Virus record (IMG/VR): IMGVR_UViG_3300005611_000002
Coordinates: 64,001 to 128,000 of that record
Strand: one strand, 5' to 3'
From: a virus
Taxonomy: Duplodnaviria > Caudoviricetes
DNA length: 64,000 nt
Position numbers and translations under genes: made by a program. Shown here one piece after another: positions 4,667-44,476 of this stretch; position 1 is the first letter of the stretch, and each line of letters begins with the position of its first letter. The notes under the pieces are model-generated. The model did not search any database and was not told the DNA's origin. It saw only the letters and a list, made by a program, of their open reading frames with translations.

Positions 4667-5253
4667 ACTACACTTTCCCTGAAATCCGCACTATTGAAGA
4701 TGTGCTTCCGCATATCGAAGGTCGTGAAGAATTCATCGTAGCAGAGCGTGAAGGATATACCGTCGTAAATTACGTTGTGGCGATGGCTGACACCTTTGAT
4801 ATGACTGGCCCTGATGATCTTGGCGGTGCTATTCGCCGTGAGTGCAGAGGTTTGATCTTCGACCGTGACGGAAACATCATGAGTCGTCCGTTTCATAAGT
4901 TCTTCAATGTGAACGAGCGTGATGAAACTCAGTCTCATGTGATCGATATGTTGCAGCCGCATGTAATCATGGAAAAGATGGATGGATCTATGATTCGCCC
5001 TATCTTGGTTGACGGTTACTTGCGGCTTGCTACGAAAATGGGTGTGACTAACGTTGCTATGGATGCAGAGGCTTTTATGGCAAAGAATACCAAGTATAAG
5101 GATTTCTGCATATGGTGTTTGGATGAGGGGTTAACACCTATTTTTGAATGGACTAGTCCATTCAATCAAATCGTTCTTCCATATGAGAACGATATGTTAA
5201 CCCTTCTTGCTGTTAGGGAAAATATAACTGGTCGCTATCTCAGCATCAAATAA
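4663..5253 (+). CDS. rnlA: RNA ligase 1, N-terminal half (motifs I, Ia, III, IIIa)
   Basis: RECRGLIF, RPFHKFFN, EKMDGS, LATK, IFEW, LLAVR; ends before motifs IV/V. Confidence 0.85.
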   Translation: MNYTFPEIRTIEDVLPHIEGREEFIVAEREGYTVVNYVVAMADTFDMTGPDDLGGAIRRECRGLIFDRDGNIMSRPFHKFFNVNERDETQSHVIDMLQPHVIMEKMDGSMIRPILVDGYLRLATKMGVTNVAMDAEAFMAKNTKYKDFCIWCLDEGLTPIFEWTSPFNQIVLPYENDMLTLLAVRENITGRYLSIK

Positions 5254-5911
5254 TATCATATTTTTCTAGGACAGACTTCTCAAAGGTCTGTCCATTTTTC
5301 ATTTGGTTTATTATTCTAGTTCTAGTTCTTTTATATACCACATCAGGTGACTTCAAATAAGACACATCAGTATTATAGTTTCCATTTGCTTTTCTAGTTT
5401 CAACTCGTTTTTTGATAGATTCTTTAGTGTTTGCTGCGGACATATCGTTGTTGTATGTGCCCAATTTTTTACGAGTTTCTACTCTCTTTTGTATTTCTTC
5501 CTCTGTCCACCCACCTTTAGCTTTTCTAACATTCCAACTCTGTTTACCATTTTCTGTACATTTATCAATGTTATTGTTTAGATATGTTGAAATCTTGTTT
5601 TTCGTTTCTTCTGTGTGTGGTATACCTTCTCTACTTGGTGGAGCATTTCCGCCTAGTGTTAAATTATAACATCTCGGATCATTTACAAGATCATTTGTAA
5701 CAATCTCTGCTTCTTTTTCAAGTGCAGATTCTCTAGTATCAAAAAACTCTAGTATTTCTTTTGTAAACGTTTCTTTGCCATACTTTTTTATGGACTCTGT
5801 AATCGCTATGCCAGAACCCATATATCCATCAGACAAATCTGATGTGCTGTGAACACCTATATAAAATTTCAAATTGCTGTTGTTAGTGACTTTGTATAAA
5901 TAGTGATACAT
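5246..5911 (-). CDS. free-standing GIY-YIG (Seg-like) homing endonuclease with NUMOD-type repeats
   Basis: YLYKVTN..N.KFYIGVH, YMGSG, CYNL..GG, HTEETKNKIS; AT-rich; antisense to flanking genes. Confidence 0.85.
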   Translation of the reverse strand: MYHYLYKVTNNSNLKFYIGVHSTSDLSDGYMGSGIAITESIKKYGKETFTKEILEFFDTRESALEKEAEIVTNDLVNDPRCYNLTLGGNAPPSREGIPHTEETKNKISTYLNNNIDKCTENGKQSWNVRKAKGGWTEEEIQKRVETRKKLGTYNNDMSAANTKESIKKRVETRKANGNYNTDVSYLKSPDVVYKRTRTRIINQMKNGQTFEKSVLEKYDII

Positions 5912-5990
5912 GCTGGAACTTCCTTTCTTGTTCTAGAGTAGTTGGGGAGACTCTCACATATCCCGCGAACTACATTACTATTTATACAAG
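5891..5990. ncRNA. conserved structured endonuclease-leader element, copy 1
   Basis: TATAAATA(5895)...GCTGGAAC..GTTCTAGAGTAGTTGGGGA..TCCCGCGAACTACATT..TATTTATA(5979); covaries with copies 2 and 3. Confidence 0.75.
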
Positions 5991-5997
5991 ATAGTAG

Positions 5998-6026
5998 TTG
6001 ACATTCCACAAAAACCAATATAATAT
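5998..6026 (+). promoter_or_regulatory. sigma70-type promoter for the RNA ligase C-terminal half
   Basis: TTGACA-N17-TAATAT, then AAGGAG SD and ATG 6053. Confidence 0.8.
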
Positions 6027-19607: not shown

Positions 19608-20279
19608 ATGTTTCATCATGTAGACCATGGAATTGTTTTACCGAAGATCACTCGTAAGAATACTGAAGTAGGAAGAAAATACTTCACGCCAGAAGGTAAC
19701 GCATATCCTTCTATCACAACTGTGTTGTCTATTCTCGGAAAGGACGCGATCCAAGAATGGCGCAATCGAGTAGGAGAGGAAGAAGCAAATCGTGTTTCTG
19801 CATTTGCTTCGAAGCGAGGAACTGCAGTTCATAAGATTGCAGAAGACTATCTTAACAACGAACCAGATTACAAGAAAGGACACATGCCAACAAGCGTGGT
19901 GTCCTTCAATGGTATAAAGTCGATACTTGATGAGAGACTAAACAACATCTGGATGCAAGAGACTTTCCTGTATAGTGATAAGCTCAAGTGCGCAGGTCAA
20001 GTTGATTGTATTGCAGAATTTGATGGTGAACTCTCGATTATCGATTTCAAAACGTCTCGTAAGGAAAAGAAGAGATCTTGGATTAGAGGTTATGAAATGC
20101 AAACTTGCTTTTACGCCGCGGCGTTTTTAGAACGTACAGGCATTGCCATAAAAAATTATGCAATAATTATAACAGTAGATGAAGGAAATTCTCAAGTTTT
20201 CACTGGAAATACTTATGAGCCCTTTCATGATTTCTTATCATGTCGTCAAAAGTACGAAGAATATGTAAGATCTCTTTGA
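19608..20279 (+). CDS. PD-(D/E)XK exonuclease; last ~63 codons are a replacement copy
   Basis: YPSITTVL, RGTAVH, AGQVD, IIDFKTS, Q..FY. Confidence 0.85.
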   Translation: MFHHVDHGIVLPKITRKNTEVGRKYFTPEGNAYPSITTVLSILGKDAIQEWRNRVGEEEANRVSAFASKRGTAVHKIAEDYLNNEPDYKKGHMPTSVVSFNGIKSILDERLNNIWMQETFLYSDKLKCAGQVDCIAEFDGELSIIDFKTSRKEKKRSWIRGYEMQTCFYAAAFLERTGIAIKNYAIIITVDEGNSQVFTGNTYEPFHDFLSCRQKYEEYVRSL

Positions 20280-21153
20280 GCCATTTTGTATTTTTTTGAT
20301 ACCAACTCCGACCTAATGTGATACGATATTTTGCTAAATAAATTTTAATCTCCATCACTTCTTTTCTTTTTGATTTTAATTTTCTCGTTTGAATATAACA
20401 CCCAGTCGTTATTTCCGGTGCTTCCTTTGTGTATTTCACTTTACTAATATCTGTTTTAAGTTGATCAATAAGATTTCTTTTTTCTATTATCTCTATACTA
20501 ATTTCTTTACAATTATCAAAATGGTGTCTAGACATTGCAGATGCGGATCTTGCCTTTGCTTTTTTCCCGCAGTGTGGGCATATTATATCTGGTTTTGAAT
20601 CTATAGTTTGCTTTCTTTTTTCTATTTGTTTTTTTCTAGTATTTTCTGAAATTTTAGATTGTCCGTTTCTAAATTTTTCACATCTTTTTTCATATTCTTC
20701 TTTAGTATAAGATTTCCAAATTTTTTTGTGTGTTTTTCGTGACTTTTCTTTAGATTTTTCTGATATAACTCTTCCAGGATATGATCTAGATTTACTAGAT
20801 TTACTTATTAGTTCGCTTCTTCTTCTTTGTACGTCTTCAGGTAACTCACTTAGTAATGGAAACCCTCTATTGTGAGTTATGTTCAACCATTTATCTGATT
20901 TTGATACTTTTAATCTTCGAAGTACACATTCTTCCCAAATTAAAGCATCTTTATGATTATTAAATTTTTTGCGAATTTGTATTACGTCTGGTTCGCCATT
21001 GATTTCTCTAAATTCCTTTACGTGTTTTGATGAAGTAAAGTATTTGACCCACAGATCAGACGGATGACAATTTTTTGCATAGCGAACACCATAATACCAT
21101 TTATCATATTTTGTCCAACCGATAAGATACGTGTAGGGAGTATAAATAGACAT
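20200..21153 (-). CDS. free-standing GIY-YIG-like homing endonuclease with CPHC Zn module
   Basis: YTYLIGW...WYYGVR, YFTSS, WE..VL, WLN, CPHC..HHFDNCK. Confidence 0.8.
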   Translation of the reverse strand: MSIYTPYTYLIGWTKYDKWYYGVRYAKNCHPSDLWVKYFTSSKHVKEFREINGEPDVIQIRKKFNNHKDALIWEECVLRRLKVSKSDKWLNITHNRGFPLLSELPEDVQRRRSELISKSSKSRSYPGRVISEKSKEKSRKTHKKIWKSYTKEEYEKRCEKFRNGQSKISENTRKKQIEKRKQTIDSKPDIICPHCGKKAKARSASAMSRHHFDNCKEISIEIIEKRNLIDQLKTDISKVKYTKEAPEITTGCYIQTRKLKSKRKEVMEIKIYLAKYRITLGRSWYQKNTKWLKEILHILRTFDDMIRNHERAHKYFQ

Positions 21154-21237
21154 GAGCTGCGTTCCTTATTTTTAAATGCGTTAACGTAGAGTAGTTGGGA
21201 CTGGTACTCCGCGAACTACATTAATATTTATAATTTT
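21136..21237. ncRNA. conserved structured endonuclease-leader element, copy 2
   Basis: TATAAATA(21141)..GCTGCGTT..AACGTAGAGTAGTTGGGACTGGTACTCCGCGAACTACATTAA TATTTATA(21225). Confidence 0.75.
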
Positions 21238-21429
21238 GGTTACTTCGTCCAAGCAAGCTTCTACGCCGCCGCATTTCTTGAAAGGACTGGAATTGCTATC
21301 AAGCAAGGTGTAATCTTGATCACTGTCGATGATGGTGAACCTCAAGTCTTCAAGATCAATACCTATGACTACCTCGAGCACTTTCTTGAAGTGCGAAAAA
21401 AGTTCAAACAAATGTACGAAGGGGGTTGA
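21238..21429 (+). pseudogene. orphaned second copy of the exonuclease 3' end
   Basis: GYFVQASFYAAAFLERTGIAIKQGVILITVDDGEPQVF...YEGG* aligns with GYEMQTCFYAAAFLERTGIAIKNYAIIITVDEGNSQVF at 20088-20279; no in-frame ATG/GTG/TTG upstream. Confidence 0.85.
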
Positions 21430-21455
21430 CATTTGTTTTGAAATGGTTTAGAATC
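21426..21455 (+). promoter_or_regulatory. early promoter (second spacer class), GAATC overlapping -10
   Basis: TTGACA-tttgttttgaaatggtt-TAGAAT-C. Confidence 0.8.
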
Positions 21456-27270: not shown

Positions 27271-28095
27271 CTAGCACTCTTCTTTCTTGTGTTTACAGTT
27301 ATCGAAATGATATCTTTGACCACCTTTCCCTTGAAACCTACAATGCGGGCACGTAAATGGCTTGCGGATTTTTGCAGACTTTTTCATATTTTCTTTATGT
27401 TCACCAGATTTGGGCACACCTTTTAGAGTTTTAGAAATGTTATTCTTAGTTTCATCTGAATGTACCCTACCTTTCATAGAAGTAGATATTTTTTCAGGAT
27501 CAGGTTTTTTCCTGTGTTTCATTTTTTCTTTATAACCAGGTCTTTGCCATATCTCCTTTCCAATCTCAGATCTTTTCTGTCTTTGTTCTTCGGTCAAATT
27601 CATTGGAACATCCTTCTTTGCTTTCGAGATAGATGCGCATTTTTTACCCTTATTCCAAGGAATATTACCTTTCTTACAAGGATTATTTTCAGACATTTCT
27701 TTACTCATTATCTTCTTTCGCTCAGCGCCCATGTCACTATCCCAAAACTGTTTCTTCAAAACAGATGCTGCTTTACCCGACAAACCAATAGCACGTTTTT
27801 TCACATTATAATATCTAATAGTTTCGTTACGTTTATTTTCTCCCAAACACAACTCTTCATCTTTGATCATGTCAAGATACTTTTGTTCTAGTGCAAATAA
27901 CTCTTTGGGATCATTACCGTAATAAAACTCAAGTATTTTCCTTCTGAAATCATGAGGTCTTTTCTTGATTGCGCTATCCATGAAACCAGTTGATGAAGTA
28001 TATCCATCATCCAATGAACCCATATGGGATCCAATACAAAACCACTTTCTTTTGCGGTCATACCAAATATATACGAAACCTGAATAAATATCCAT
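27271..28095 (-). CDS. free-standing GIY-YIG (Seg-like) homing endonuclease, NUMOD3 and CPHC
   Basis: GFVYIW...FCIGSH.G..DDGY.SS, RYYN, PWNKGK, HSDETKNNIS, CPHC..YHFDNCK. Confidence 0.85.
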   Translation of the reverse strand: MDIYSGFVYIWYDRKRKWFCIGSHMGSLDDGYTSSTGFMDSAIKKRPHDFRRKILEFYYGNDPKELFALEQKYLDMIKDEELCLGENKRNETIRYYNVKKRAIGLSGKAASVLKKQFWDSDMGAERKKIMSKEMSENNPCKKGNIPWNKGKKCASISKAKKDVPMNLTEEQRQKRSEIGKEIWQRPGYKEKMKHRKKPDPEKISTSMKGRVHSDETKNNISKTLKGVPKSGEHKENMKKSAKIRKPFTCPHCRFQGKGGQRYHFDNCKHKKEEC

Positions 28096-28175
28096 TGCTG
28101 GAACTCCTTTCTGTAAATGTTTAGTTCTAGAGTAGGTGGGACTGGTACTCCGCGACCTACATTTTTATTTATTAG
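28080..28175. ncRNA. conserved structured endonuclease-leader element, copy 3
   Basis: AATAAATA(28083)..GCTGGAACT..AGTTCTAGAGTAGGTGGGACTGGTACTCCGCGACCTACATTTT TATTTATT(28166). Confidence 0.75.
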
Positions 28176-28233: not shown

Positions 28234-28262
28234 TAAAAAAGGCGGGTCCGAAGACCCGCCTT
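28234..28262 (-). terminator. gp23 terminator (UUCG loop)
   Basis: minus strand AGGCGGGTC-TTCG-GACCCGCC-TTTTTT. Confidence 0.92.
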
Positions 28263-28300: not shown

Positions 28301-29638
28301 TCAAAACAGATTTGCAACTTTTACTCTTCTGTAGTACACGTTGGTGTTTGTTTCCAGACGACCCAGAGCAGTTGCAACACCAGTGATGCCGCCTTCTGCG
28401 AATGGGTTAGCAACCATGCCATAACGAGTCTTGAACCCGATTTTAGGCTGGAAGCTGTTTTCACCAACTGCACGGTACATCTGTAGCGGTACATATGGGC
28501 AGTAGAAGAGGCCTGCGTCGAATGCGCTGGAACCCTTGTAACCAACTACGAGATAGTTGCTACCTGCATATGGATCGATGTAAACTCTGTAGCGACCGTT
28601 GAGAACACCAGCGAAGGTATTACCTGTATCGTCTACGTTCAGTGCGTTGCTGTTCAGTGCTGGAGTATAATCCAGGACACCTGCCATCTGAAGAGCGGAT
28701 GCAACATCGGAAGAACAGATAACGATGTTACCCTTACCTCTACGAGTCGCTTTTGCGATCGCGTTGGCTTCTTGCTCGATCTGGAACATCAGACCCTTGA
28801 ACTTCTCAACCGACCAACGACCATTTGCGTCAACATCTAGGTCGAAAGTACCAGCTGCAGCAGTATTAGCAGCACCAGTTACAGCAGTTGAGTAGATGGT
28901 ACGAACAAGCTCGCGGTTGATTTCTACAAGAATTTCAGACTGTAGAATGTTTGCAAGCTCAGTTTCAGCATCTAGACCATGAACAGCACGTAGGTCTTGT
29001 GCAAGTTCAGTGGTGTATTCTGCTTTCAGTGCGCGGCTCTTTGCAGATACAGTTACTTTCTCGATTGAGAATGCCATTTCTGCGAAAGTGTTTGCGCCAT
29101 CAGCACCAAGAGATTCTGCAACACCAGTTGTCATACCTGTACCAGTGCTAAACTGTGAAGTATTAGCAATATCGGTTGGCATCATTGAACCGGTATGTGT
29201 ACCTGTACCAGAGAAGTCGGTATCAGCTTCATTGTAGAATGCTTCAGTACCAGTTTGTGATTCGTAACGTGAACGCATTGCAAAAATCAGACCGGTTGGA
29301 CCAGTCATTGGCTGAACACCTGCAATGTCATATGCCATCAGGTTTGGCATCGCGCGACGTACGAGGCTGATCAGAACTGGATCGTAACCAGCAACTGGAC
29401 CACCAGCAGCTGCAGAAGTACTGAAACCACCGGTTCCTGCTGCGTTAGTTGGTGTCTCCATGAGAAGTGAGCTCATTGAGATTGACTGATCGCCAGACTC
29501 CATGAGTGCTTTCTCGGTGTTTTCAAGAATCGTAGCAGTAACTGCTCGTCTATGCTGATCCTTGATTGGCTCGAAAGTAGAGTGCTCAAGTACTGGACCC
29601 CACTTTTCCACCAGAGCTTGATAGTTTGACTGTGTCAT
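28301..29638 (-). CDS. 23: major capsid protein
   Basis: DPVLISLVRR, GVQPMTGPTGLIFAMRSRY, AKSRALKAEY, FYCPYVPL, FQPKIGFKTRYG; TATAAATA at 29676-29683. Confidence 0.98.
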   Translation of the reverse strand: MTQSNYQALVEKWGPVLEHSTFEPIKDQHRRAVTATILENTEKALMESGDQSISMSSLLMETPTNAAGTGGFSTSAAAGGPVAGYDPVLISLVRRAMPNLMAYDIAGVQPMTGPTGLIFAMRSRYESQTGTEAFYNEADTDFSGTGTHTGSMMPTDIANTSQFSTGTGMTTGVAESLGADGANTFAEMAFSIEKVTVSAKSRALKAEYTTELAQDLRAVHGLDAETELANILQSEILVEINRELVRTIYSTAVTGAANTAAAGTFDLDVDANGRWSVEKFKGLMFQIEQEANAIAKATRRGKGNIVICSSDVASALQMAGVLDYTPALNSNALNVDDTGNTFAGVLNGRYRVYIDPYAGSNYLVVGYKGSSAFDAGLFYCPYVPLQMYRAVGENSFQPKIGFKTRYGMVANPFAEGGITGVATALGRLETNTNVYYRRVKVANLF

Positions 29639-29699
29639 AATTTCTATCTCCTTATGGTTATTGTTATTCTGGATATATTTATAAAACTATATTTTTCAC

Positions 29700-30653
29700 T
29701 TACTTGGAGTTGCGTGCGTTGAGCGCTTCAACTAAAGCATTGACGGTGGAGTACTGGGAAACTGGTTTCTTTTCTTCCTCTTCAGTGATGATTTCATCTT
29801 CATCATCAGATACATTCTCTGTTAGGGCCTTACCTTTTTTGAAGAATGATTCCTTGAGAGTCTCAAGATTTGAAGAATAAGCTTCAAGGTCACTTACGTC
29901 AAGGTTCTCAGAAAGTGTTCTCAGTCTTTCGCGTTGAGAAACTGTAAGACCTTCGGTCATTTCTTCAAATACTTTTTCTGCTTCGAGACTAAGAACTACT
30001 TGTGAAAGCTCAATGTTCTCGTTAATCGTTTTGTTGACTTGAGCTTGCAGTTCTTCGATCTGCTCTTCAAGACCTGCAACGACGTCGATTGTTTCTTCGT
30101 CTACGTCGATGTTATGCTCAGTGAAGAGTTCTTTGAGACCTTCCATGAGAGACTCAGCCATTTCAACCTTGATACCGGTTTCTACAGCAAGTTCATTTTC
30201 TTCCATCCATTCGCCAACAACGTAGTCAAGATATGAATCAAGATTTTCTACGATCTCGTCCATTGTTTCTTCAATGGATTCTTCAAGCTGTTTTTCGAAC
30301 TCTTCTTCAAGTTCAGCAGCGATTGCCTCGGCTTTTGCAGTTGCTGCTTCATTGACTGCAGCTTCGAAAACCATAGTAACCTTTGACTTGAAGTCTTCGG
30401 AAAGATCCATACCTTCAAACATAGAAGCGATAGACTCATCAATGGAAATAACTTCCTCTTCAACAACTTCTACTTCTTCTGTTTTGGTTTGACCTGGTAC
30501 TTCGCTAGCTGAAACTTCATCAGCCTTAGGATCAGCTTTTTTATTCAGATCTGCTCTTTTCTTTTTGTGTTCTCCGCCCGCTGGTGTCACAGAGTCAGGC
30601 ACTGTAGAAACACCGTCGTCAGCAACGAACTTTTCTTCTAGATCATTTGCCAT
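29700..30653 (-). CDS. 22: prohead core scaffold protein
   Basis: acidic; FEAAV, LDSYLDYVV.EWM.EN; position; TATAAATA at 30692-30699. Confidence 0.92.
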   Translation of the reverse strand: MANDLEEKFVADDGVSTVPDSVTPAGGEHKKKRADLNKKADPKADEVSASEVPGQTKTEEVEVVEEEVISIDESIASMFEGMDLSEDFKSKVTMVFEAAVNEAATAKAEAIAAELEEEFEKQLEESIEETMDEIVENLDSYLDYVVGEWMEENELAVETGIKVEMAESLMEGLKELFTEHNIDVDEETIDVVAGLEEQIEELQAQVNKTINENIELSQVVLSLEAEKVFEEMTEGLTVSQRERLRTLSENLDVSDLEAYSSNLETLKESFFKKGKALTENVSDDEDEIITEEEEKKPVSQYSTVNALVEALNARNSK

Positions 30654-30703
30654 GTGTTCTTCTCCTTTATTGTGGATTTCATATTATGGTTTATTTATAA
30701 AAA

Positions 30704-31381
30704 TCATTTCCTGAGTGACTCGATGAAGATCTCGAACATTCTTGCCGCAGTGCTTTCATCAATCTTACGAACTGTTCGCTTATATTCTCTTTTCACTTCT
30801 TGAACTGCTTCTTCGATAAACTCTTGCGCTCTCCAAGTACCAGACGTGATGTCATAATAGTACTCGGTATTTTCCATGATGCCATTGACAAAGCAGTTTG
30901 GACCGCTTGGATCTGTTACTACGTCAACAGTCGCTAGATGAAAGTCATCTTGAACTTCCATGATACCTTCTTTGGTCTGTTTGACCGAGCCGAGACCACG
31001 AGTAGAAACACCAACTTTTACACCTTCATCGATGAATGTCTTGACGATCTCACCCATTGGTGTACCAAGGATTTTTGCTTTACCGATGAAATTAGAACCA
31101 TCACGCTTCATTTCAGTAATTAGGTGAGAAACACGATCACCATTGATCTGAGGACCATCAGGATGTCCAAGTTCACCCAGGGCACGCTTCGTCTGAATAA
31201 AGTCTTTGTTATAGCGATTCATTTCTTTTTCAAGAACTGCGGAAGGATAGATACGACCATTACGGTTCTTGAGATCTCCTTGCATAAAGATCCCATGAAT
31301 AAAATAATTTTTCTTACCATTTTCACTTGCTTCAGTAAGAACTTCACAATCTTCTTCAAAAACTTCAGTTATTAATTTCAT
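30704..31381 (-). CDS. 21: prohead protease (start 31381, MKLITE)
   Basis: KNRNGRIYP, ALGELGHP, GVSTRGLGS, D.V.DPS. Confidence 0.95.
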   Translation of the reverse strand: MKLITEVFEEDCEVLTEASENGKKNYFIHGIFMQGDLKNRNGRIYPSAVLEKEMNRYNKDFIQTKRALGELGHPDGPQINGDRVSHLITEMKRDGSNFIGKAKILGTPMGEIVKTFIDEGVKVGVSTRGLGSVKQTKEGIMEVQDDFHLATVDVVTDPSGPNCFVNGIMENTEYYYDITSGTWRAQEFIEEAVQEVKREYKRTVRKIDESTAARMFEIFIESLRK

Positions 31382-32189
31382 TTTTATGACCTTTCCTTTT
31401 TGTGAGCATACCCTTTTTCCATCCATTATTAATATACTCATCCAGGAGATGCATTTTTATTTTTGTATTTTTTCCGTCCTTATTTACAAAAACGGTGCCT
31501 CTACTAGCTGCTCCCAATTTAGACTTTTCTTCTTCGCTTTTAATTCTTCCTTTTTGTACTTTCGAAATTTTTTCAGCAAAGCCGCCAGGTTTTTTCTTAC
31601 CTTTATTTGCGACAGATATTTTATTGGAAATTTCTTTTTTCTTTTCTTCGCTTAAATTTTCTCTGTACAAAATATTAGATTTTCTATTCTTTTCTATAGA
31701 ATTAACTGAATGTTTTCTTCCTGCATTAATTTCGCCTTGTTTTTTACTTTTCATTCTTTTTAATCTAATAGCAGTTTTTTCTCCATAAATTTCTTCGTAT
31801 GTTTTACCTTTTCTTTTGAAAGATAATGCTTTTGCAAAAGCTCGTCTACATTCATCATACTCTCTTGAAGATAGAAATCTTTTTTTACTTCGAACCATAG
31901 CGCCGAAAGCAGAAATCATTTTATAATATGCATTGGTATTTTCATCGACTATTTTTATAAGCAGTTTATGGGCTATAAAGTGTTCTCTGGCTGTCAATTT
32001 TGCGGCATTCCATTCGCTCACGCTTAAATTTTTATATTGCGGAAAAATGCATTTTGGTAAAATGTGATGCACTTCGCAATAACCGGATAAATCCTTTCTG
32101 TTTATAGAGCGCTCAATCAAAGATATATAAATTTTGGTATATTTATTATCTTTAAATAACGGATCATTTTTTAGTATATTTTTATACAT
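31365..32189 (-). CDS. free-standing HNH (Mob-like) homing endonuclease
   Basis: E.HHILP.C, LTAREHFIAH.LL, GKTYEEIYG, NUMOD3-like repeats, GW.KG. Confidence 0.85.
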   Translation of the reverse strand: MYKNILKNDPLFKDNKYTKIYISLIERSINRKDLSGYCEVHHILPKCIFPQYKNLSVSEWNAAKLTAREHFIAHKLLIKIVDENTNAYYKMISAFGAMVRSKKRFLSSREYDECRRAFAKALSFKRKGKTYEEIYGEKTAIRLKRMKSKKQGEINAGRKHSVNSIEKNRKSNILYRENLSEEKKKEISNKISVANKGKKKPGGFAEKISKVQKGRIKSEEEKSKLGAASRGTVFVNKDGKNTKIKMHLLDEYINNGWKKGMLTKRKGHKNEINN

Positions 32190-32201
32190 GGATTTATAAA
32201 C

Positions 32202-32279
32202 TCAGTTTTTCTTGCCGTTTTCACTGGCTTCGGTAAGAACTTCGCAGTCCTCGTTGAATACTTCTGTAATCAGTTTCAT
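32202..32279 (-). pseudogene. orphan 25-codon duplicate of the gp21 5' end
   Basis: MKLITEVFNEDCEVLTEASENGKKN* with AAGGA SD vs gp21 MKLITEVFEEDCEVLTEASENGKKNYF. Confidence 0.9.
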
Positions 32280-32313
32280 TTGGTAGTTTCCTTTTTGTTT
32301 CTATTTATCATTT

Positions 32314-32559
32314 TTATGATTTGTATGAAACTGGAGTGCATAGGATATTATTATCGCCAGAAATAGAGTGCGTCTTGATCTTTTCTACAATCTCAACTGT
32401 ATTTTCTGGCATCGTAAATGTTCCGATAACAGTATTTGCACCCACGTCTTCGACGGTCACTACAGTATTCGCAGAAGCATATACTCGAACTAGCGCAGAA
32501 TCATATACAGTGTTCGCAGTTGAAACTGTAATCTCGGTATTGATTGGTTTAATAATCAT
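32314..32559 (-). CDS. small head-region protein
   Basis: ORF in late operon. Confidence 0.7.
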   Translation of the reverse strand: MIIKPINTEITVSTANTVYDSALVRVYASANTVVTVEDVGANTVIGTFTMPENTVEIVEKIKTHSISGDNNILCTPVSYKS

Positions 32560-34106
32560 AGTGCCTCCCTTGCAAAACCTACGATCTCTTCATAGCCTGC
32601 TTTATCAGCCATCATTGTATCTTGCATTTTCTTACGGTTTGTTTTATTGAGATCATTAAACATCTGATTTAGAAGTTCGGCATCCTTTTTTGATACAGTG
32701 ATAGAAGAACCATCATCAAGCTTCATACGACCTGGTTTTACCGCTTCTTGTAGTGATTCACTCATTTTTTCTTGACCGTATTCGTCACGCTGTACAGGTC
32801 TAGTTGTTGTCATGCGTGTACGAGTTACTCCACGTGCATCTGTATACTTGACTGGACGCTTTATTGCAGAACGTGTGACTTCATCAAGTTCAACTTCTTC
32901 ACCTAAGACGTCAATCTGGTGAGCTTTTCTAGCAATCGCTCCGGCTGCTCTTTCTGCATTCTTTTTACTTAGACCCTTTTTCATAAGAATTTTACGATGA
33001 TCATACTCCGACGCGCCGCGAGCTTCTGAATCTGTAAATCCTGATTTTTTGTCCTTCTTGTACTTCTGTATAGCTTTGCGCATAAGATTTTTATCTTTTA
33101 ATACGTTTTCATCGAGCTCAGCTTCTTCGCCATACATACTCATATTCATACGGCGATCGCCTTCAACATATCCGTGAAGGGTCATCATCTGTCCGTGTAC
33201 GTGAGCAAGTTTGTTCTGGAACCACTCTTCTGGATCTACACACATATCATCACAGTCATTGAGATAAGACATGATTTCCTGCGCAGCATACATAATAAAC
33301 TGCAGTTGACGGCTCATCATTGGAATTTCTTCCCATGCGTCTTCTGCCATATTTGCTTTATCGGCAAGACGACCTGAAGCAGAAGTAATACCAGCAAGTC
33401 TTTTATTCGCTTTCTTTCTGTTCTTGTCTCCATCAGCGTAGTTACCACGCTTATCGTCGTAACCGGACATTCTAGATCTCTTTGCTAGATCCTTACCTGC
33501 GCCTTTGATATAGGAGTGCAGAGTGTTTGGTGAAAGCTCGTCAAGTTGTTCAACTTCTTCTTTACGAAACTTACGAGCTACACTCCTATCAGCCATCTTC
33601 AAACCTTTTGCGCGCTTGTCCATAGTCTTTGTTTCTTTTGAGATGTCTGCAGACTGAGGACCATTCTTACTACGTAGCATTTTATCAATTGCTGAATTTG
33701 ATGCGCGTTCTTTACTACGGTTAGCTTTTGCTTTATAGCTTTTCATTGCCCGTGGTGTATCAAGAACTTCGTCAAGCTCGGCTTCCTCTTTCACCTTCTT
33801 TTTCATTGCTTTACTAATTGCTTTGCGACGTGCATGTAGATACTTATCTGAAGAATCTACATCACCATCATTATCAATGTCGTCGTCCTCTTTACCTACA
33901 GGATCCATTGCTTCATATACGTCTTCGTCATTGCCTTTTTCATAATCAGCACGACGCTTCGGCATTTTCTTTGTGGATCCTTTGAATGTTTCATCGCCTG
34001 CATGACTATGTGGAAACTTTTCAATCTCGTGTTTTGCCTTGAAATGAATCTCATCTCCGGCCTTTGGTTGTGCAACCTCGGAAAGAAGTTTACTGAAGGT
34101 CTTCAT
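32556..34106 (-). CDS. prohead core / internal protein with repeated EE.ELDE linkers
   Basis: MKTFSK..SE start, position after portal, DPVGKEDDDIDNDGDVD.SD.YL..RRKAI motif. Confidence 0.75.
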   Translation of the reverse strand: MKTFSKLLSEVAQPKAGDEIHFKAKHEIEKFPHSHAGDETFKGSTKKMPKRRADYEKGNDEDVYEAMDPVGKEDDDIDNDGDVDSSDKYLHARRKAISKAMKKKVKEEAELDEVLDTPRAMKSYKAKANRSKERASNSAIDKMLRSKNGPQSADISKETKTMDKRAKGLKMADRSVARKFRKEEVEQLDELSPNTLHSYIKGAGKDLAKRSRMSGYDDKRGNYADGDKNRKKANKRLAGITSASGRLADKANMAEDAWEEIPMMSRQLQFIMYAAQEIMSYLNDCDDMCVDPEEWFQNKLAHVHGQMMTLHGYVEGDRRMNMSMYGEEAELDENVLKDKNLMRKAIQKYKKDKKSGFTDSEARGASEYDHRKILMKKGLSKKNAERAAGAIARKAHQIDVLGEEVELDEVTRSAIKRPVKYTDARGVTRTRMTTTRPVQRDEYGQEKMSESLQEAVKPGRMKLDDGSSITVSKKDAELLNQMFNDLNKTNRKKMQDTMMADKAGYEEIVGFAREAL

Positions 34107-35730
34107 CTTGAGTTCTCCCAGTTTGATTATTTGAATTCTTTTTTCTATTTATAAGTAGCGATTCCTCAGCTTCCTGTCCTGGTTCTTCAGGCGGCGGTTG
34201 GTCACCTTCGAAGTCACTCATTTCTTGCTCTTCGTCTTCGCGTTCTTTCTTCATCTGTTTTTCCATTTCTTTCCAATCATTATCAGACATGTAAAGAACG
34301 TTTTTGACTACCCATTCCTTCGAGAAGTACTTACCGATTTGTTCTTCGACTTCACGTAGAGTTGACATCTTTTCACGAAGAATTTCAGCTTGCTTCAACT
34401 CTTCGAAGTAGTTGTCTTTCATGAAGTCATAACGAATCTGATTTTGTATTTCTTTCCACTCTTCAGGATCCATAATACCTTTCAGTATCAGTTGCTTTTC
34501 GAGTAGAACATCAAACAACTGCGAGAACCGCGCACGAAGTCGACGAATAAACTTACTGAACTTCAATTCATCACGACTAATCTCAGATGCACGACCAAAT
34601 GTATACATGGTCTCTGGTTCTAGTCTTGAGATTGGAACTCGAAGTGACTTATAAAGTTGCCTCTGGAAGTACTGTAGATTTTCATCTGTGCCGAGAGCTT
34701 GAGAATTACCGCCAGCAAGAAGATCAACTTCGGTAGATCTTTCACCACCGCGACGTGGGAACCAGAAGTCTTCAGTCATGGTCATGAACCGGCGCGAGTC
34801 ACTAATGTCGCCAGACGTAGAGTCATAGCGAAGTTTATTCTTGTGACGAACCATCATATCATGTAGGTACTGTTCAGCCTTTGCCTTTGGAAGGTTACCG
34901 ACATCGATGTAGAAAATACGTCGTTCAGGTGCTCTTGTCAGTGTATAGATCACAACGGCGTCTTCGAGCATTCGAAGCTGATTGAGTGGCTTGATTGCAG
35001 GATGCAGGTGACCTAGAACCATTGCGTTGTTTTCGCTCAACAGACCAGATGTGATGCGTGCGATCGAGTCCTTTGCAATACGATAACCTTGAGTAGTTCC
35101 GTCTTGTTGAGTACCTTTAGTACTACCAAAGCCAGCTTCGGAATAAAGATAATACTCAGACTTTACTCGTTTGATCGGTATACCGGAATGTGGATCTTTT
35201 TCACGACGATCCATTTCCTTGACAAGTCTTAACTTACGAGGATCAATATACCGAAGTTCGTAGATACCTTCTTTCAAATTTTCCGGATCAATCATTACGT
35301 GATAATTGAGTCTTCCGTCAACATAGAATCTAGAAAAAATATCATACGCGTTATTTGAAAAGTCAAGAAGAGAAAGTACATTATCAAACTCTTCTGTGAT
35401 TTTTTCTTTGACTTTATCTGGAAGATCGGTATCATCAAGAACTACTTCAACGACTTTTTCATGTGAGTCAACGCTGATCGCTTCATTCACAATTTCGTCT
35501 ACAGCCTGAGTAATTTCAGTCTGCATCGCCATGCTACGATACTTAGTCACGAGCTCAGACTCAGTCTTTGCAGCTCCTTCCATATCCAGCATCATACCGT
35601 AGAAACCGCCGAGAGCGTTTCCTACAGTGATAGCACCGTCATCGTTCGTTGGCTCGACGAAGGACATCGGCTGTTTGCTGATGTCCTGCTCGTCTTCGGG
35701 CCTCTTGATTTCAAATCCAAAGATGCGCAT
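34090..35730 (-). CDS. 20: portal protein
   Basis: YIDPRK, NQLRMLEDA.VIY...RAPERRIFYIDVGNLP, EDFW.PRR. Confidence 0.97.
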   Translation of the reverse strand: MRIFGFEIKRPEDEQDISKQPMSFVEPTNDDGAITVGNALGGFYGMMLDMEGAAKTESELVTKYRSMAMQTEITQAVDEIVNEAISVDSHEKVVEVVLDDTDLPDKVKEKITEEFDNVLSLLDFSNNAYDIFSRFYVDGRLNYHVMIDPENLKEGIYELRYIDPRKLRLVKEMDRREKDPHSGIPIKRVKSEYYLYSEAGFGSTKGTQQDGTTQGYRIAKDSIARITSGLLSENNAMVLGHLHPAIKPLNQLRMLEDAVVIYTLTRAPERRIFYIDVGNLPKAKAEQYLHDMMVRHKNKLRYDSTSGDISDSRRFMTMTEDFWFPRRGGERSTEVDLLAGGNSQALGTDENLQYFQRQLYKSLRVPISRLEPETMYTFGRASEISRDELKFSKFIRRLRARFSQLFDVLLEKQLILKGIMDPEEWKEIQNQIRYDFMKDNYFEELKQAEILREKMSTLREVEEQIGKYFSKEWVVKNVLYMSDNDWKEMEKQMKKEREDEEQEMSDFEGDQPPPEEPGQEAEESLLINRKKNSNNQTGRTQDEDLQ

Positions 35731-35748
35731 TATTTAGTTTATCCTCAC

Positions 35749-36282
35749 TTAGGTTGTAGAAATTCCAGTTGTGCCTTCAACTCTCCATAGATCATACTGG
35801 AATGTTACAGAAAATTCTTCGATGGTATCTGTAGCTTCCCAAGCCATTGGAATTGCATCGATAGCGATTGGATACATTCCTTCAAAGATATAAGTACGAA
35901 GCGGGCTACCGTTCTTACCATATTGTGTAATTAGACCATTTGACTTATAGCTTTGAGGAAGAGCTCTTGTATTACTATCATGACTGTTGATCGCATTTGA
36001 CCAAGCTTCCATTGCGTTGCGCACCAGGAAGTCTTCGTCGTTGATAACAGTAATCGGCCAATCTTCAAAAACTCGATCACCTGCATATTTTACTTGTCGA
36101 CCGAAATATGGTACGATAGTAGAACCGAGAGTCGATCCAGGAAGTGCCGCAGTTTTAGCCATAAATGGTAGCTTCAAGTCTGCAGCGGGTTCAATTGGAT
36201 TTGTAATTTGTACTTGGAATAGCGTGGGGCGAGCACCGCCGCCCACAAGCTCTGACTTAAACTGGTTAATATTGAAAGCCAT
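35749..36282 (-). CDS. 19: tail tube protein
   Basis: GGARP.LF, GDR.F..W.ITV.NDEDF, IEEF.VTF.Y. Confidence 0.95.
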   Translation of the reverse strand: MAFNINQFKSELVGGGARPTLFQVQITNPIEPAADLKLPFMAKTAALPGSTLGSTIVPYFGRQVKYAGDRVFEDWPITVINDEDFLVRNAMEAWSNAINSHDSNTRALPQSYKSNGLITQYGKNGSPLRTYIFEGMYPIAIDAIPMAWEATDTIEEFSVTFQYDLWRVEGTTGISTT

Positions 36283-36306
36283 CGTTATCTCCTTTACTTT
36301 TATTTA

Positions 36307-38184
36307 TCAAGCAATTTGACCAACAATCTCATCAAACTCAACACCAGTTCTTGTAGCAACGAATGTAAGTTCGATAATATTGATTGATCTTGCCGGTTTG
36401 ATAAAGATGTTTGCTCTAAATTTGTTTTGATCAATTACATCAGGAGTATTTACCGTTTCGTCAGATATTACTCTGAAGTCGATAATACCGCGACGACCTT
36501 GAATGTCCCGTAGGAGAGGTTCCACTAGGTTTTTGAACTGTGTTCTTGTAAATTCGTCATTGAATTCAAATAGGAACTGTTCAGCTGCAGTAGCAATAGC
36601 TTTTTCAACCGTAATGAAGAGACGACGTACATTGATGCGATCGAACGCGCTTGCAAAGCCTTGACCAGTCTTATCACCAAATAGAAGAATACCTTGACCA
36701 GTAATCGAGATCACGGAGTTGATGTCAGATCCATAAAGCAGATCTCTCTGCGCTTTATTTGGATTGAATGCAAGCTTGACTACGTTCTTGATCACGCCGC
36801 GTTTATATCCAGCTGGAGACTCCCAAGATTCAGTTCTTGACGCAAGACCTGCGATATCACCGTTCAGTGGTACCCAACGGTATACATCATTGTACTTGTC
36901 GTAACGATATTTGTATCCACTATCCATAAACCAATATGAAGACGACTGAACTTGATTACGATAAGCAATCGCACGGTTCATCTTTTCATTTGGAGCAGAG
37001 GGTGAGACAACTGCTTCAAGTGGAGGCGAAAGGAATGCAACGCAATCTTTACGATTATCTACAATATTTGAAATGATGTAGTTCGCAAGATTTGCATGAG
37101 CTGGAAGATTATTCCCGTCAAGTGTTGTAGTACCTTTACCCTGAAGAACGAATGCAATGTCAAGTTCTTTTGGATCTGCGAATAAGTCGTAACCTTCCGC
37201 AAGAGCTCCAAGACCAATGGATGCTTCACCAGATCCGTCACCACCACCCTCAAGTGATTCGTAAGCAGTAGCTGCTACTGAAGCATTAATTACAGAAGCG
37301 CCAGCTTCAACCCAAGCAGATCTATTCTCTAGAACTGTTGGATAATAATTGGTTGTACCATCTGATAATTTTGCACCTTCCGTAGCTGAAACATTACTGT
37401 ATGTTTCAAGAATTGTTCCTGCCGTGCCGGTAATTTCTCCGTCTTCGTCTTTGACGATAATGTGAAGAGAACCAGAACTCGGTGCTGAACCAAATAGATT
37501 TGAATATCTCCACTTTCTTTCTACTTTCAGAAGAGAAAGATCAGTTTGTGAAAGCGTATACTTGTTTGAAAATGATACTTCGATGGTTTGAATTGCAGTA
37601 TTTGAGTCATCAACATCTGCGGTCACTGCTCCAACATTAGTTACAAATAATTCTTGATAACCAACAGTGTCATTACCAATTCTTAGCACATCGTTGTCTT
37701 CGAAAGCATTAGAAATCGTGTTTGCAGCATCAGACGCTGGTGTTGCGGTAAATGTAATCGTATTAGCGTTGAATGTAATAGTACCTGAAACGCCACCAAT
37801 ACTTACAACATCTTCTTCGTAATCGCCTGATGTTACATAAGAAACTTCAAGCGAGTTACCAAGTTCACCAGGATATTTTGCAACAAAGTTTGCTGAGTTT
37901 GCAGTCGCAGCGTTTTCTTCAGCTCGAACCACATAAAGTGCGTTTGAATATGCAAGAAAATCTGCTGCAGTAAAGAATGTTTCATAGTTTTGCCATATAG
38001 TATTCGCGTATGGTTTGCCAAAGCGAGCTACAAGCTGATCTTCTGATGTTACAAGAATTGCTTCATTTACCGGACCCCAACGAAACACACCAGCCATAGC
38101 TGCCGGTGGAGTCGCAATTGCGGGAATCACGGCTGTTGCATCAACTTCTCGAACAATCACGGAAGGGCTTACTGAGAATGCCAT
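36307..38184 (-). CDS. 18: tail sheath protein
   Basis: SP.V.VREVD, F.WGP, YDKYND..RWVP.NGD.AGL, FDRINVRRLF, IKPARSIN. Confidence 0.97.
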   Translation of the reverse strand: MAFSVSPSVIVREVDATAVIPAIATPPAAMAGVFRWGPVNEAILVTSEDQLVARFGKPYANTIWQNYETFFTAADFLAYSNALYVVRAEENAATANSANFVAKYPGELGNSLEVSYVTSGDYEEDVVSIGGVSGTITFNANTITFTATPASDAANTISNAFEDNDVLRIGNDTVGYQELFVTNVGAVTADVDDSNTAIQTIEVSFSNKYTLSQTDLSLLKVERKWRYSNLFGSAPSSGSLHIIVKDEDGEITGTAGTILETYSNVSATEGAKLSDGTTNYYPTVLENRSAWVEAGASVINASVAATAYESLEGGGDGSGEASIGLGALAEGYDLFADPKELDIAFVLQGKGTTTLDGNNLPAHANLANYIISNIVDNRKDCVAFLSPPLEAVVSPSAPNEKMNRAIAYRNQVQSSSYWFMDSGYKYRYDKYNDVYRWVPLNGDIAGLASRTESWESPAGYKRGVIKNVVKLAFNPNKAQRDLLYGSDINSVISITGQGILLFGDKTGQGFASAFDRINVRRLFITVEKAIATAAEQFLFEFNDEFTRTQFKNLVEPLLRDIQGRRGIIDFRVISDETVNTPDVIDQNKFRANIFIKPARSINIIELTFVATRTGVEFDEIVGQIA

Positions 38185-38253
38185 ATTTGTCTCCTTCTAA
38201 TATTTGATGATTGCTTCAATTATATTCTCAGTCTATTTATAAAATCACTAAAC

Positions 38254-39888
38254 TTAGAAGTCCGACCAGTCAGCCATGAAATTGTTTTTAGCTACTGGCT
38301 GAAAACCGGGTTTTAACTCTTCTTGTTCTGTAACATCACCATCCATTATAAATCCAAATGGAAGCAAATCATCCTCGATTTCTTTTTCTGTCTTTTCACG
38401 AAGTTTTGATAGTGTATTTATATCGGTCATGTCCTTGAAGAAAGTCTGATCGGATAACCAAGCAAAGATTACGAGGTTCATGACTAGGTCATCGTGCCAT
38501 CCAGATTCTGCTTCATACGAAGAACCCTTCCTTGAAAAACGAGACAATTCTTGTATTGTATGATAGTCTTGAATGATCAACTGATTCTGTTCTATCAACA
38601 TTTTCAGCATTGAACATCCAACAGACTTTACGGATTTTGTAGTGCGAATACCGTTATCTACTCTCTTACCAAAACCACTTGAAATACGCTTGCCGCTTCG
38701 ACCTGCGTTTTCTGTGAATAACAAGTTTTCATAACCATAATCCATAGTCAATGTATCAGACACTTGTTCGCCGATGTCATTGATTTCAATAAGAATAGCA
38801 GCTTCATTGTAAAGTTTGCCCATCCTAAAGATAATTGAAGCAAAATCCACTGGTCCTACAAAGTTATCTCGATAAGTACAGACCTGTTTATAAGGCATCT
38901 TCGTACAATCGATGATGTTGAATGTAGAATAGTCTAATCCTTTGCCTCGAGATACATCAACCGTCATAAAGTATACTCGATCTTTTTCAGGTTTCTCATA
39001 TTGATAGATACCATCTTTTTCTGTAATTGGTTGTGAAAAGTCAAGTTCTTTGAGTTTAGCACCTGATATGAGAGTATTTGTGCTACCAACAAAACTACAA
39101 TTAAATTCTTGTTCAAATTTTTCCGCGTCGTTGTCTATTGCAGATAAAGTATCTATTTTCCAAGCTTCGTCACGACCTGGCACTTTATCCCATGGTATTT
39201 CAATATATACATATCCATTTCTACCTTCTTGAGCACCCTTACACGTTTTCCAAAAATGGTTGAGAGAATTTGGCGTAGATGTAAGAAGTATTTTTGTAGT
39301 TTTACCAGAAGAAATTGTAGGATAAACTGATGCGAAAAATTCATCCCAATTTTCAAGGAAAGCTGTCTCATCAATATATAAGAACGAGATACTTTTTCCT
39401 CGAATTGCTGAAGACGAAGAAGCTGAGGCTATAACTTTACAACCATTTTCTAATTCTATAGAACCTTTATTCCACTCGACTACACCTTGTTGTAACCATT
39501 TAGGAAGAGCCTCGTATGCGATTTGTACTCTGTTTAATATTTCTCTTGCAGAATCACCTTTATTTGCTAAGAGTGCTACAGTTTTATATTCATTGAATAA
39601 AACATAGTGAAGGATAATTGCAACCGCGGTGGTAGTTTTACCTGCCTGTCTACTCGAATTTACTACAACTCTTCTACCAGTAGTAATTGCGCTTATAATT
39701 TCTTTTTGAAAATCATATAATTTTATCGGAATGAGACCTTGATCAACGTGAACAATATGAATATATTTTTCCGCGAAATAGATAGGATCTTCGGCACATT
39801 TCATATATTCTTTGATAAGTTCAGGAGTCCATTCTATTTCCTGTTGACTTTTTTTGAGTTGAGAGTTTCCTAAATAACCTTCAGACAT
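38254..39888 (-). CDS. 17: terminase large subunit (start 39888)
   Basis: DPIYFAE.Y, RQAGKTT, YIDE.AF, DVSRG.GLDYS, HDDLVM. Confidence 0.97.
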   Translation of the reverse strand: MSEGYLGNSQLKKSQQEIEWTPELIKEYMKCAEDPIYFAEKYIHIVHVDQGLIPIKLYDFQKEIISAITTGRRVVVNSSRQAGKTTTAVAIILHYVLFNEYKTVALLANKGDSAREILNRVQIAYEALPKWLQQGVVEWNKGSIELENGCKVIASASSSSAIRGKSISFLYIDETAFLENWDEFFASVYPTISSGKTTKILLTSTPNSLNHFWKTCKGAQEGRNGYVYIEIPWDKVPGRDEAWKIDTLSAIDNDAEKFEQEFNCSFVGSTNTLISGAKLKELDFSQPITEKDGIYQYEKPEKDRVYFMTVDVSRGKGLDYSTFNIIDCTKMPYKQVCTYRDNFVGPVDFASIIFRMGKLYNEAAILIEINDIGEQVSDTLTMDYGYENLLFTENAGRSGKRISSGFGKRVDNGIRTTKSVKSVGCSMLKMLIEQNQLIIQDYHTIQELSRFSRKGSSYEAESGWHDDLVMNLVIFAWLSDQTFFKDMTDINTLSKLREKTEKEIEDDLLPFGFIMDGDVTEQEELKPGFQPVAKNNFMADWSDF

Positions 39889-40594
39889 ATTCGAAACCAA
39901 ACCCCAATTCTTTATATGTTTTTCCAACTATTGATTTGTCATAATTATTTTTCAAAAATCCATTTTTTGAATGGGAGAGATTTGTTATTTTCTTTTCATT
40001 TGAATTTATACAATAATCGTATAAAGAACTAGTTCCCATACCAAGTTTTTCACAAGCTTCTTTATAACTTTCAAATTTGCCAAGTGGAGTAATAAAATAT
40101 CCTCTAAATTTTGGATAATCTTTACCTTTAAGTTTTTTCATTTTTTCGGAATGATCGGGTCTGCTTTTTCCATAAAAATGGTTTTTTTCACCAGACTTCA
40201 TTTCGCTTAATTTTTTTCTTGTTTCTTCCGAATGTTTTTTGTCATAAAATGGGTTGTTCGATCCTTTCATTTTTTCGGAATGATCGGGTCTTTTTATGCC
40301 TTTCATGTTTGGAGGCATACCACCGCCTTCGGCTATATTCCATCCTATTTCTTTTTTGGGTCTATATTCAATTTCTTTTTTTACTGCTTCATCTAAAGAT
40401 AAATTTTCATATAGTATTTCATATACTATATCGTCATATTTTTTTATAGCATTAGAAACAGCAGAGTGTTTACTATTATTTTTTCTATGTTCAGAAAATC
40501 TTCTTTTTGTATTATTAGAAATACCAATATAACCTTCTGAAAAAATATCAGAATGACATGTTCTTCTGATCCAATAAACAGAATAATTATTCAT
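39881..40594 (-). CDS. free-standing GIY-YIG homing endonuclease with NUMOD3 repeats
   Basis: VYWI...GYIGIS....RF..H, GWN...GG, NPFY.KKHSEETRKK; overlaps gp16 stop and gp17 start. Confidence 0.85.
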   Translation of the reverse strand: MNNYSVYWIRRTCHSDIFSEGYIGISNNTKRRFSEHRKNNSKHSAVSNAIKKYDDIVYEILYENLSLDEAVKKEIEYRPKKEIGWNIAEGGGMPPNMKGIKRPDHSEKMKGSNNPFYDKKHSEETRKKLSEMKSGEKNHFYGKSRPDHSEKMKKLKGKDYPKFRGYFITPLGKFESYKEACEKLGMGTSSLYDYCINSNEKKITNLSHSKNGFLKNNYDKSIVGKTYKELGFGFEYV

Positions 40595-41024
40595 TGTCTT
40601 TGTCACCTTTGATCATCTTGAGTAGATCCGCTGTCGACACAATCAAATTGTTGTTCGTCACATTAGTCTGCGCAGCTTCTTTTGGTCCGTTCTTTTCTTC
40701 GATAGCATACTTTTTCTTTGTCGACATCTCCACGAAGTCTTTGTTTGCATCAAGAAGAGTTTTCATCAGATTTGCCGCAACTTCAAACGCTCGAGGAGAC
40801 TCGTATTGTTTGGCAAGGTCGATCATTTCTTTTAGTGAATCATCACCCTGTTCTATGATGTTCTGAATATTTCGTCGAGCCTTTTCGATGTCTTGAATAT
40901 TTTCATCATCTTCAGTATTTGGCGCTGCCGGCAGCTGCTCTTCAACTACCGTTGGAAGATCTTCTTGTTTCGCTTCTTCGAGCGGTCTCAGACCAAGTGC
41001 ACTAGCAATAATATCGTCATTCAT
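40587..41024 (-). CDS. 16: terminase small subunit
   Basis: ESPRAFEV...L.K, NNN..VST.DL; position. Confidence 0.88.
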   Translation of the reverse strand: MNDDIIASALGLRPLEEAKQEDLPTVVEEQLPAAPNTEDDENIQDIEKARRNIQNIIEQGDDSLKEMIDLAKQYESPRAFEVAANLMKTLLDANKDFVEMSTKKKYAIEEKNGPKEAAQTNVTNNNLIVSTADLLKMIKGDKDNE

Positions 41025-41833: not shown

Positions 41834-41836
41834 GTG

Positions 41837-42520: not shown

Positions 42521-42523
42521 GCT

Positions 42524-43267: not shown

Positions 43268-43323
43268 ACGTGCATCTCCCAGTTTTATTTCTATTTATAT
43301 CGGAAAGAGTTTGCACTTTTTTG

Positions 43324-43351: not shown

Positions 43352-43381
43352 AGTACTAACTAAAACAAACTGATAATAGAT

Positions 43382-44464: not shown

Positions 44465-44476
44465 TTTAGGCTCTTA

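Follow-up and report, generated by a model that had tools for sequence, protein, structure and literature searches.

Homing endonucleases are the chief mobile genes of large lytic phages and, to our knowledge, the way in which a phage tolerates a dozen of them is understood from only a handful of examples in T4, each of them acting at the level of the mRNA. The locus described here raises the question of whether such genes can also be restrained from the opposite strand: three endonuclease genes are each headed by a short structured leader that is bracketed by two inward-facing late-type promoter octamers. The original prediction held that the functional molecule may be an antisense RNA that limits a toxic nuclease or, alternatively, that a helix formed by the two octamers (P1) hides the start codon on read-through mRNA. 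Two comparative checks were named, namely a count of G.U against A.C pairs by strand and the conservation of the octamer embedded in the coding sequence beyond the needs of its codons.

The DNA analysed (hereafter the window) comprises 64,000 nt taken from a viral record of 194,645 bp that has terminal repeats (bases 64001-128000). Structural genes occupy window positions 28301-45921 on the - strand in T4 order (major head, scaffold, prohead protease, portal, sheath, large terminase, head-tail adaptor and a collagen-like fibre). No tRNAs were found within the 64,000-nt window.

Anatomy of the cassette in the three window copies

The endonuclease genes and the parts of the cassette heading each of them are located in the window as follows, stem A' and hairpin B' denoting the elements on the antisense strand.

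5246-5911, - strand: copy 1 GIY-YIG homing endonuclease gene, 221 aa, assigned by family match; start codon at 5909-5911
5895-5986, both strands: copy 1 cassette, with the antisense octamer TATAAATA at 5895-5902 (+) and the sense octamer TATAAATA at 5979-5986 (-)
5913-5919 with 5930-5936: copy 1 stem A'
5938-5973: copy 1 hairpin B'
20200-21153, - strand: copy 2 endonuclease gene, 317 aa, PHROG homing endonuclease with a GIY-YIG-like N-terminus
21141-21148, + strand: copy 2 embedded antisense late-type octamer TATAAATA, within endonuclease codons 2-5
21157-21189, + strand: copy 2 stem A' (CTGCGTT ... AACGTAG), assigned by pairing and compensatory change
21191-21219, + strand: copy 2 hairpin B/B' (GTAGTT ... 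AACTAC, with a G/GG:CC/C junction and a variable tip), assigned by pairing and covariation
21225-21232, - strand: copy 2 sense late-type promoter octamer TATAAATA for the endonuclease mRNA, assigned by match to the consensus
27271-28095, - strand: copy 3 endonuclease gene, 274 aa, NUMOD3, PHROG homing endonuclease; start codon at 28093-28095
28083-28173, both strands: copy 3 cassette, with the antisense octamer AATAAATA at 28083-28090 (+) and the sense octamer AATAAATA at 28166-28173 (-)
28098-28104 with 28124-28130: copy 3 stem A'
28132-28160: copy 3 hairpin B'

Read along the gene strand, all three genes display the same order of parts, consisting of an octamer (TATAAATA or AATAAATA), 4 nt, TGTAG, hairpin B, stem A, the ATG and an embedded TATTTAT(A/T), the last of these falling in the first few endonuclease codons and being the reverse complement of the sense octamer. 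Hairpin B is formed by GTAG(T/G)T ... A(A/C)CTAC around a CGCGG/CCC junction with a variable tip, and stem A by CTA+N4 ... N4+CAG, the Shine-Dalgarno sequence being enclosed by the latter. In copy 2, the arms of stem A' are compensatory to the CTGGAAC/GTTCTAG of copies 1 and 3, the complement of the Shine-Dalgarno sequence sits in the 5' arm and loop of stem A', and the sense octamer, when read on the + strand, is part of a U-rich tail behind hairpin B'. The core motif did not occur in any of 100 shuffles.

The - strand octamer had been placed exactly 4 nt ahead of TGTAG, and this spacing holds at 5979-5986, 21225-21232 and 28166-28173. T4 late promoters carry their octamer at -13 to -6; applied here, this rule predicts an mRNA +1 at the G opening hairpin B (5973, 21219 and 28160), as had been proposed. 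The + strand octamers said to be hidden in the early codons were found at 5895, 21141 and 28083, with all coordinates correct, and they do lie in different reading phases (TAT TTA TA in codons 4-6 of copy 1, T ATT TAT A/T in codons 2-5 of copies 2 and 3). The extension of P1 by G.U pairs that had been described for copy 1 is real there but peculiar to that copy. Judged from sequence alone, the cassette is a portable unit of ~85-95 bp that heads homing endonuclease genes of unrelated families in uncultured T4-like phages.

Several further features flank the window copies. Copies 1 and 2 are each directly followed by a sigma-70-type promoter for the next + strand gene (window 5998-6026, TTGACA, ~17 nt, TAATAT, and 21426-21454, TTGACA, 17 nt, TAGAAT; both on the + strand), so that each of these insertions has its own early promoter behind it, and an open stretch at window 21238-21429 (+) separates cassette copy 2 from the next promoter. 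A GC-rich hairpin with flanking A and T runs (window 28236-28262) separates cassette copy 3 from the 3' end of the major head gene and looks like a two-way terminator at the early/late boundary.

Distribution of the cassette and the strand that folds

Related copies were collected by an exact-pattern scan of viral contigs, in which at least 118 contigs matched, and 118 distinct copies were parsed from the matched contigs together with the whole genome (among the matches listed). In these first 118 copies, a large part of hairpin B and the outer pairs of stem A are dictated by the scan pattern, and many copies may share descent, so that the counts do not represent independent events. A covariance model (R1), spanning stem A' to hairpin B' on the antisense strand with both octamers omitted, matched 7 copies in this genome and, across 22 further records, between 1 and 13 copies each, with a complete 360-kb phage holding 13. 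The 27 weaker R1 matches that do not fit the original pattern are referred to below as divergent copies.

Five further copies are located in the same genome outside the window (genome coordinates ~57225-57318, 58732-58825, 149614-149705, 178807-178894 and 189282-189374). One of these is on the + strand, both octamers are present in all five, and the arms of hairpin B covary (GTTAGT/ACTAAC, GTCAGT/ACTGAC, GTAGGC/GCCTAC). This genome holds 8 cassette copies in total.

Among the matches listed, the ORFs downstream of the cassette (n=94) comprise 33 with NUMOD3, 5 with GIY-YIG and at most ~20 of HNH type, the last distributed over five Pfam families (8, 7, 2, 2 and 1). Alignment of the downstream ORFs gave a mean column identity of 11%, and the genes behind the cassette are, as far as their sequences can tell, unrelated to each other. 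Ten copies (L035, L042, L049, L073, L079, L006, L060, L086, L104 and L118) head ORFs of <60 aa, from which it is inferred that the endonuclease has decayed and that the cassette outlasts the gene in some phages.

Searches for known relatives were carried out at several levels. In Rfam 15, no match at the gathering score was obtained within the window, copy 2 gave none up to E = 10, and a typical family copy gave chance-level matches only. No cultured carrier was found when the region and two cassette copies were compared with 50,697 phage records using megablast and blastn, the sole match being a chance-level one to a Rhizobium phage. No paper describing the cassette was found in the literature. 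Endonuclease-linked motifs go undiscussed in a 2023 catalogue of phage structured RNAs (PMC10690425), although overlap of the cassette with that catalogue is not excluded.

The strand on which the cassette folds was decided by comparative data only, single-sequence folding of the three window copies having given z-scores that were unremarkable for both strands. The third pair of stem A, noticed in the window copies as A.C on the mRNA and G.U on the + strand, has this composition in 113 of 113 aligned copies (among the matches listed). At stem A positions 4 and 5, the mRNA strand has 59 A.C (or C.A) cells and no G.U, and these same cells are all G.U on the opposite strand. When two alignments of the same 113 copies were compared, 97.0% of cells were paired on the antisense strand versus 89.1% on the sense strand, and for the outer stem A pairs of these copies the values were 99.3% for the antisense and 68.9% for the mRNA strand. 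The mean folding energy of stem A is -2.6 kcal/mol on the mRNA and -5.6 kcal/mol on the antisense strand, a difference of 3.0, and the antisense fold is the more stable one in 109/118 copies (p = 5e-20; among the matches listed). Stem A is represented by 43 distinct arm pairs across the family (among the matches listed), indicating that its pairing is maintained by compensatory change.

Hairpin B is less discriminating in the pattern-derived set: 98% of its cells are paired on either strand in the 113 copies, with 5 covarying pairs, and no strand preference is apparent (63 vs 54). In the 27 divergent copies, the hairpin B arms vary (GAGGGT/ACTCTC, GGGGAT/ATCCTC, GTCAGT/ACTGAC and others), and G.U wobble pairs number 22 on the antisense versus 2 on the mRNA strand. 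The G.U bias in stem A and in the divergent hairpin B indicates that both hairpins are under selection on the strand opposite the gene. The count of G.U against A.C pairs by strand, the first of the two checks, favours the antisense strand in both elements.

The two octamers as putative late promoters

The octamer TATAAATA occurs 15 times in the window versus 3.6 expected, and copies of it stand some tens of bases ahead of the major head, scaffold, tail sheath and head-tail adaptor genes. It behaves like the late promoter of this phage, with promoter activity being inferred from the consensus match. Of 120 related copies, 94 have a sense TAAATA at -10 to -5 relative to TGTAG, and the sense octamers across related copies read GATAAATA, TATAAATA, AATAAATA, CATAAATA or ACTAAATA (both among the matches listed), in agreement with NATAAATA, the late consensus reported for T4-like cyanophages (PMC2984593). 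In this genome, both cassette octamers are TATAAATA in 6 of the 8 copies, whereas elsewhere this octamer makes up 18% of the sense and 16% of the antisense octamers (Fisher p ~0.001 each versus this genome). Such a genome-specific bias fits a resident late machinery reading both octamers, to which shared descent may contribute.

The embedded octamer was examined for conservation beyond that imposed by its codons. TATTTA lies exactly 6 nt past the last base of stem A in 87/118 copies (among the matches listed). As the ATG slides within the spacer (CAGC-ATG-AC, CAGCA-ATG-A, CAGCAA-ATG), TATTTA is read in all three frames, which are used by 66, 13 and 8 of these 87 copies, and the reverse complement of the embedded site reads NATAAATA in 67 of the 87 (again among the matches listed). 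Among cassette-headed ORFs, 109/118 (92%; among the matches listed) have TATTTA at nt 4-15, compared with 24/1369 (1.8%) of control ORFs of the same contigs and 6/256 (2.3%) of AT-rich controls, an enrichment of ~40-fold over control ORFs. The divergent copies, obtained with a model from which both octamers had been omitted, were used as a test set: TAAATA is found 5-7 nt upstream of the R1 start, on the antisense side, in 26/27, and the complement of the sense promoter 2-8 nt past the R1 end in 25/27. By its fixed register, its use of three frames, its enrichment and its presence in the test set, the embedded octamer is kept beyond codon needs, and the second check was satisfied. Octamer and stem are 7-10 nt apart in this genome, and not 6, which renders the predicted antisense start less exact here.

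A predicted antisense RNA and the readings weighed against it

We consider it probable, while far from assured, that the cassette consists of convergent late promoters ~85 bp apart from which an antisense RNA of ~65-80 nt is made over the nuclease 5' UTR, and that the nuclease is thereby restrained; no transcript and no RNA ends have been observed. Anatomy, conservation and the strand of the fold are observed, and both comparative tests support the original prediction of an antisense RNA limiting the nuclease, whereas transcription of this RNA, its 3' end, repression and a lowered nuclease output remain inferred.

In the mechanism proposed, the outer promoter would direct synthesis of the nuclease mRNA from the first G of hairpin B, and the inner promoter, within nuclease codons 2-6, would fire in the opposite direction, with an antisense start predicted 0-5 nt before stem A' (~1 nt in a typical member), placing it at the start codon or immediately upstream. 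The small RNAs predicted on the + strand extend from ~5908 to ~5985 for copy 1, from ~21154 to ~21230 for copy 2 and from ~28096 to ~28172 for copy 3. By this geometry, the predicted RNA spans the Shine-Dalgarno sequence and the whole 5' UTR, starting at or beside the start codon. It would fold into two hairpins, of which A' would present the Shine-Dalgarno complement, and would probably be ended by the U-rich tract behind hairpin B', which is the complement of the outer promoter. The G.U pairs would allow the antisense strand to fold, and the A.C mismatches at the same positions of the mRNA would leave its ribosome site open. By pairing along the entire 5' UTR, the antisense RNA may then block ribosome binding or trigger cleavage, polymerases from the two promoters would collide in between, and pairing and collision together would result in low nuclease output at late times.

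The 3' end is the weakest part of the antisense model. Hairpin B' has a mean energy of ~-9.5 kcal/mol (118 copies, among the matches listed), and the antisense 3' tail typically reads CUUUUAUUUAU and contains on average 6.2 U per 10 nt. This U tract is broken up, most runs being of 2-4 U, and no terminator was called at copy 2 by a simple terminator scan.

A sense-strand mRNA leader of the T4 I-TevI type, in which the P1 helix of the embedded octamer and the promoter octamer would hide the start region on read-through transcripts, was weighed against this reading. It has precedents in T4 I-TevI, I-TevII, I-TevIII, segB and Aeh1 mobE, all of which combine a late promoter with a hairpin at the ribosome site (PMC2988022), and it would draw on the two octamers being exact reverse complements, on the few pairs by which copy 1 lengthens P1 and on the ability of hairpin B to form on either strand. 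However, the next outer pair of P1 is 71% paired versus 64% when shuffled and the following pair falls below the shuffled level, P1 would close a three-way junction (joiners of 5 and 6 nt) with 6-7 A.U pairs, both hairpins lie downstream of the late promoter and neither contains it, and stem A on the mRNA contains A.C mismatches that leave it at the low mean energy given above. Moreover, the window endonuclease genes are antisense to their neighbours, which makes read-through mRNA unlikely. The mRNA leader is for these reasons thought very unlikely; the alternative originally offered, with P1 hiding the start codon on read-through mRNA, drew no support from covariation, and P1 was rejected as the main reading in the absence of extension or covariation beyond TAAATA/TATTTA. 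Little credence is likewise given to the inner octamer being an outward promoter that restores late transcription of the adjoining phage gene, with the hairpins forming the 5' leader of that transcript. Embedded promoters serving adjacent genes are carried by T4 seg and mob genes (PMC2988022), the upstream neighbour is co-directional with the antisense RNA in 59/111 scorable loci (among the matches listed), and the window + strand genes are co-directional with it too. Against this, TATTTA is kept in 37/38 loci in which the neighbour runs along the endonuclease and in 53/59 in which it runs the opposite way (among the matches listed), and a promoter for the neighbouring gene was rejected as the main role on the grounds that octamer conservation is independent of neighbour orientation. 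A hairpin and U-rich tract directly downstream of the inner octamer, and the next gene's own sigma-70-type promoters behind copies 1 and 2, also speak against it.

The remaining readings concern the level at which the cassette acts. That it is a DNA-level element, either a recombination or shuffling module or a single-stranded DNA hairpin signal moving promoters between endonuclease genes, with conservation reflecting spread and not RNA function, would accommodate both the same cassette heading unrelated gene families and the ten copies fronting decayed ORFs of <60 aa, and G.T pairs stabilise DNA hairpins as well; yet the extensive compensatory change, with its 43 stem A arm pairs, reflects purifying selection on pairing rather than recent spread, both sides show a fixed promoter-to-stem geometry, and we regard this reading as barely credible. 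The antisense RNA could also be made and have a main role other than cis repression, acting in trans on other copies or co-infecting phages, or binding a conserved protein. A cis-only antisense RNA leaves the constancy of the hairpin B primary sequence unexplained: hairpin B and the junction are near-invariant in primary sequence, which is unneeded for cis pairing. This genome has eight copies and one record as many as 13, and some copy pairs have exact shared stretches of 12-19 nt, but for many pairs within this genome the shared stretch is no longer than 6-8 nt, a partner protein is not known, and the constancy derives partly from the search pattern, with divergent copies varying more. Only a slim chance is accorded to such a non-cis role. 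The specific proposal that the antisense RNAs constitute a shared trans-acting network across cassette-headed endonuclease genes is doubtful as well; it would follow from hairpin B and the junction being nearly the same in all cassettes, so that each small RNA could recognise other endonuclease leaders, whether these belong to its own genome, with 8-13 copies, or to a co-infecting relative.

For an antisense RNA made from convergent late promoters and restraining the nuclease, the preferred reading, the closest working analogues are, by analogy of arrangement, RNA-OUT/RNA-IN of IS10 and art200 of IS200. RNA-OUT is a 69-nt antisense RNA whose promoter lies inside the transposase gene, which pairs with the initiation region and acts more strongly with copy number (PMC5006887). 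IS10/Tn10 shares with the cassette a selfish nuclease-type gene and, as judged in the cassette from consensus matches, convergent 5' promoters with the antisense one just inside the gene, and RNA-OUT resembles the predicted cassette RNA in being ~70 nt long, in forming a stable stem-loop and in its complementarity to the translation initiation region (PMC5006887). The cassette differs from IS10 in its lytic T4-like phage host, in its late-type NATAAATA promoters, where those of IS10 are sigma-70 promoters, in an overlap that takes in the entire structured 5' UTR (~60 nt, two hairpins), and in serving homing endonucleases in place of transposases; unlike IS10, nothing in it has been experimentally tested. 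In IS200 art200, as is predicted for the cassette, both RNAs are structured, a hairpin with terminator function is found at the end of the element and repression is layered, whereas in IS200 a stable mRNA stem conceals the Shine-Dalgarno sequence (PMC4513863) and the corresponding mRNA stem of the cassette is weakened by A.C, its antisense stem being stable.

In the T4 I-TevI-type scheme, the late promoter lies inside a hairpin that hides the ribosome site, and late transcripts escape the hairpin (PMC2988022). The cassette resembles T4 I-TevI, I-TevII, I-TevIII, segB and Aeh1 mobE in having a late promoter just upstream and RNA structure at the ribosome site; in the T4 type, however, the promoter is within the hairpin and the mRNA folds, whereas in the cassette the promoter precedes both hairpins, the opposite strand folds and a second, convergent putative promoter is present (PMC2988022). 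The cassette fails the defining feature of the I-TevI-type switch while sharing its late promoter. CfrI of cyanophage S-PM2 (Millard et al. 2010) is described as antisense to a homing endonuclease gene (PMC2984593, PMC12197685). Like the predicted cassette RNA, it is there described as lying antisense over a free-standing homing endonuclease gene of a T4-like phage; unlike it, CfrI is ~225 nt long and reaches into psbA (PMC2984593, PMC12197685). No sequence or cassette shared between the two was found, and blastn against cultured phages gave no match.

If the antisense reading is true, a portable cassette common to GIY-YIG and HNH genes would build an antisense RNA from two convergent late promoters, and a transposon-style control known from IS10 and IS200 would have moved into phage late transcription. 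Were the doubtful trans-acting network also to be true, it would entail copy-number-dependent damping of all cassette-headed nucleases, or protection against the nucleases of a competitor, and phage homing endonucleases would have a regulatory layer of their own. The cassette provides a clear example of G.U/A.C asymmetry, by which one strand folds and its complement stays open, and constitutes a compact, testable regulatory part as well as a sequence marker for such genes in metagenomes.
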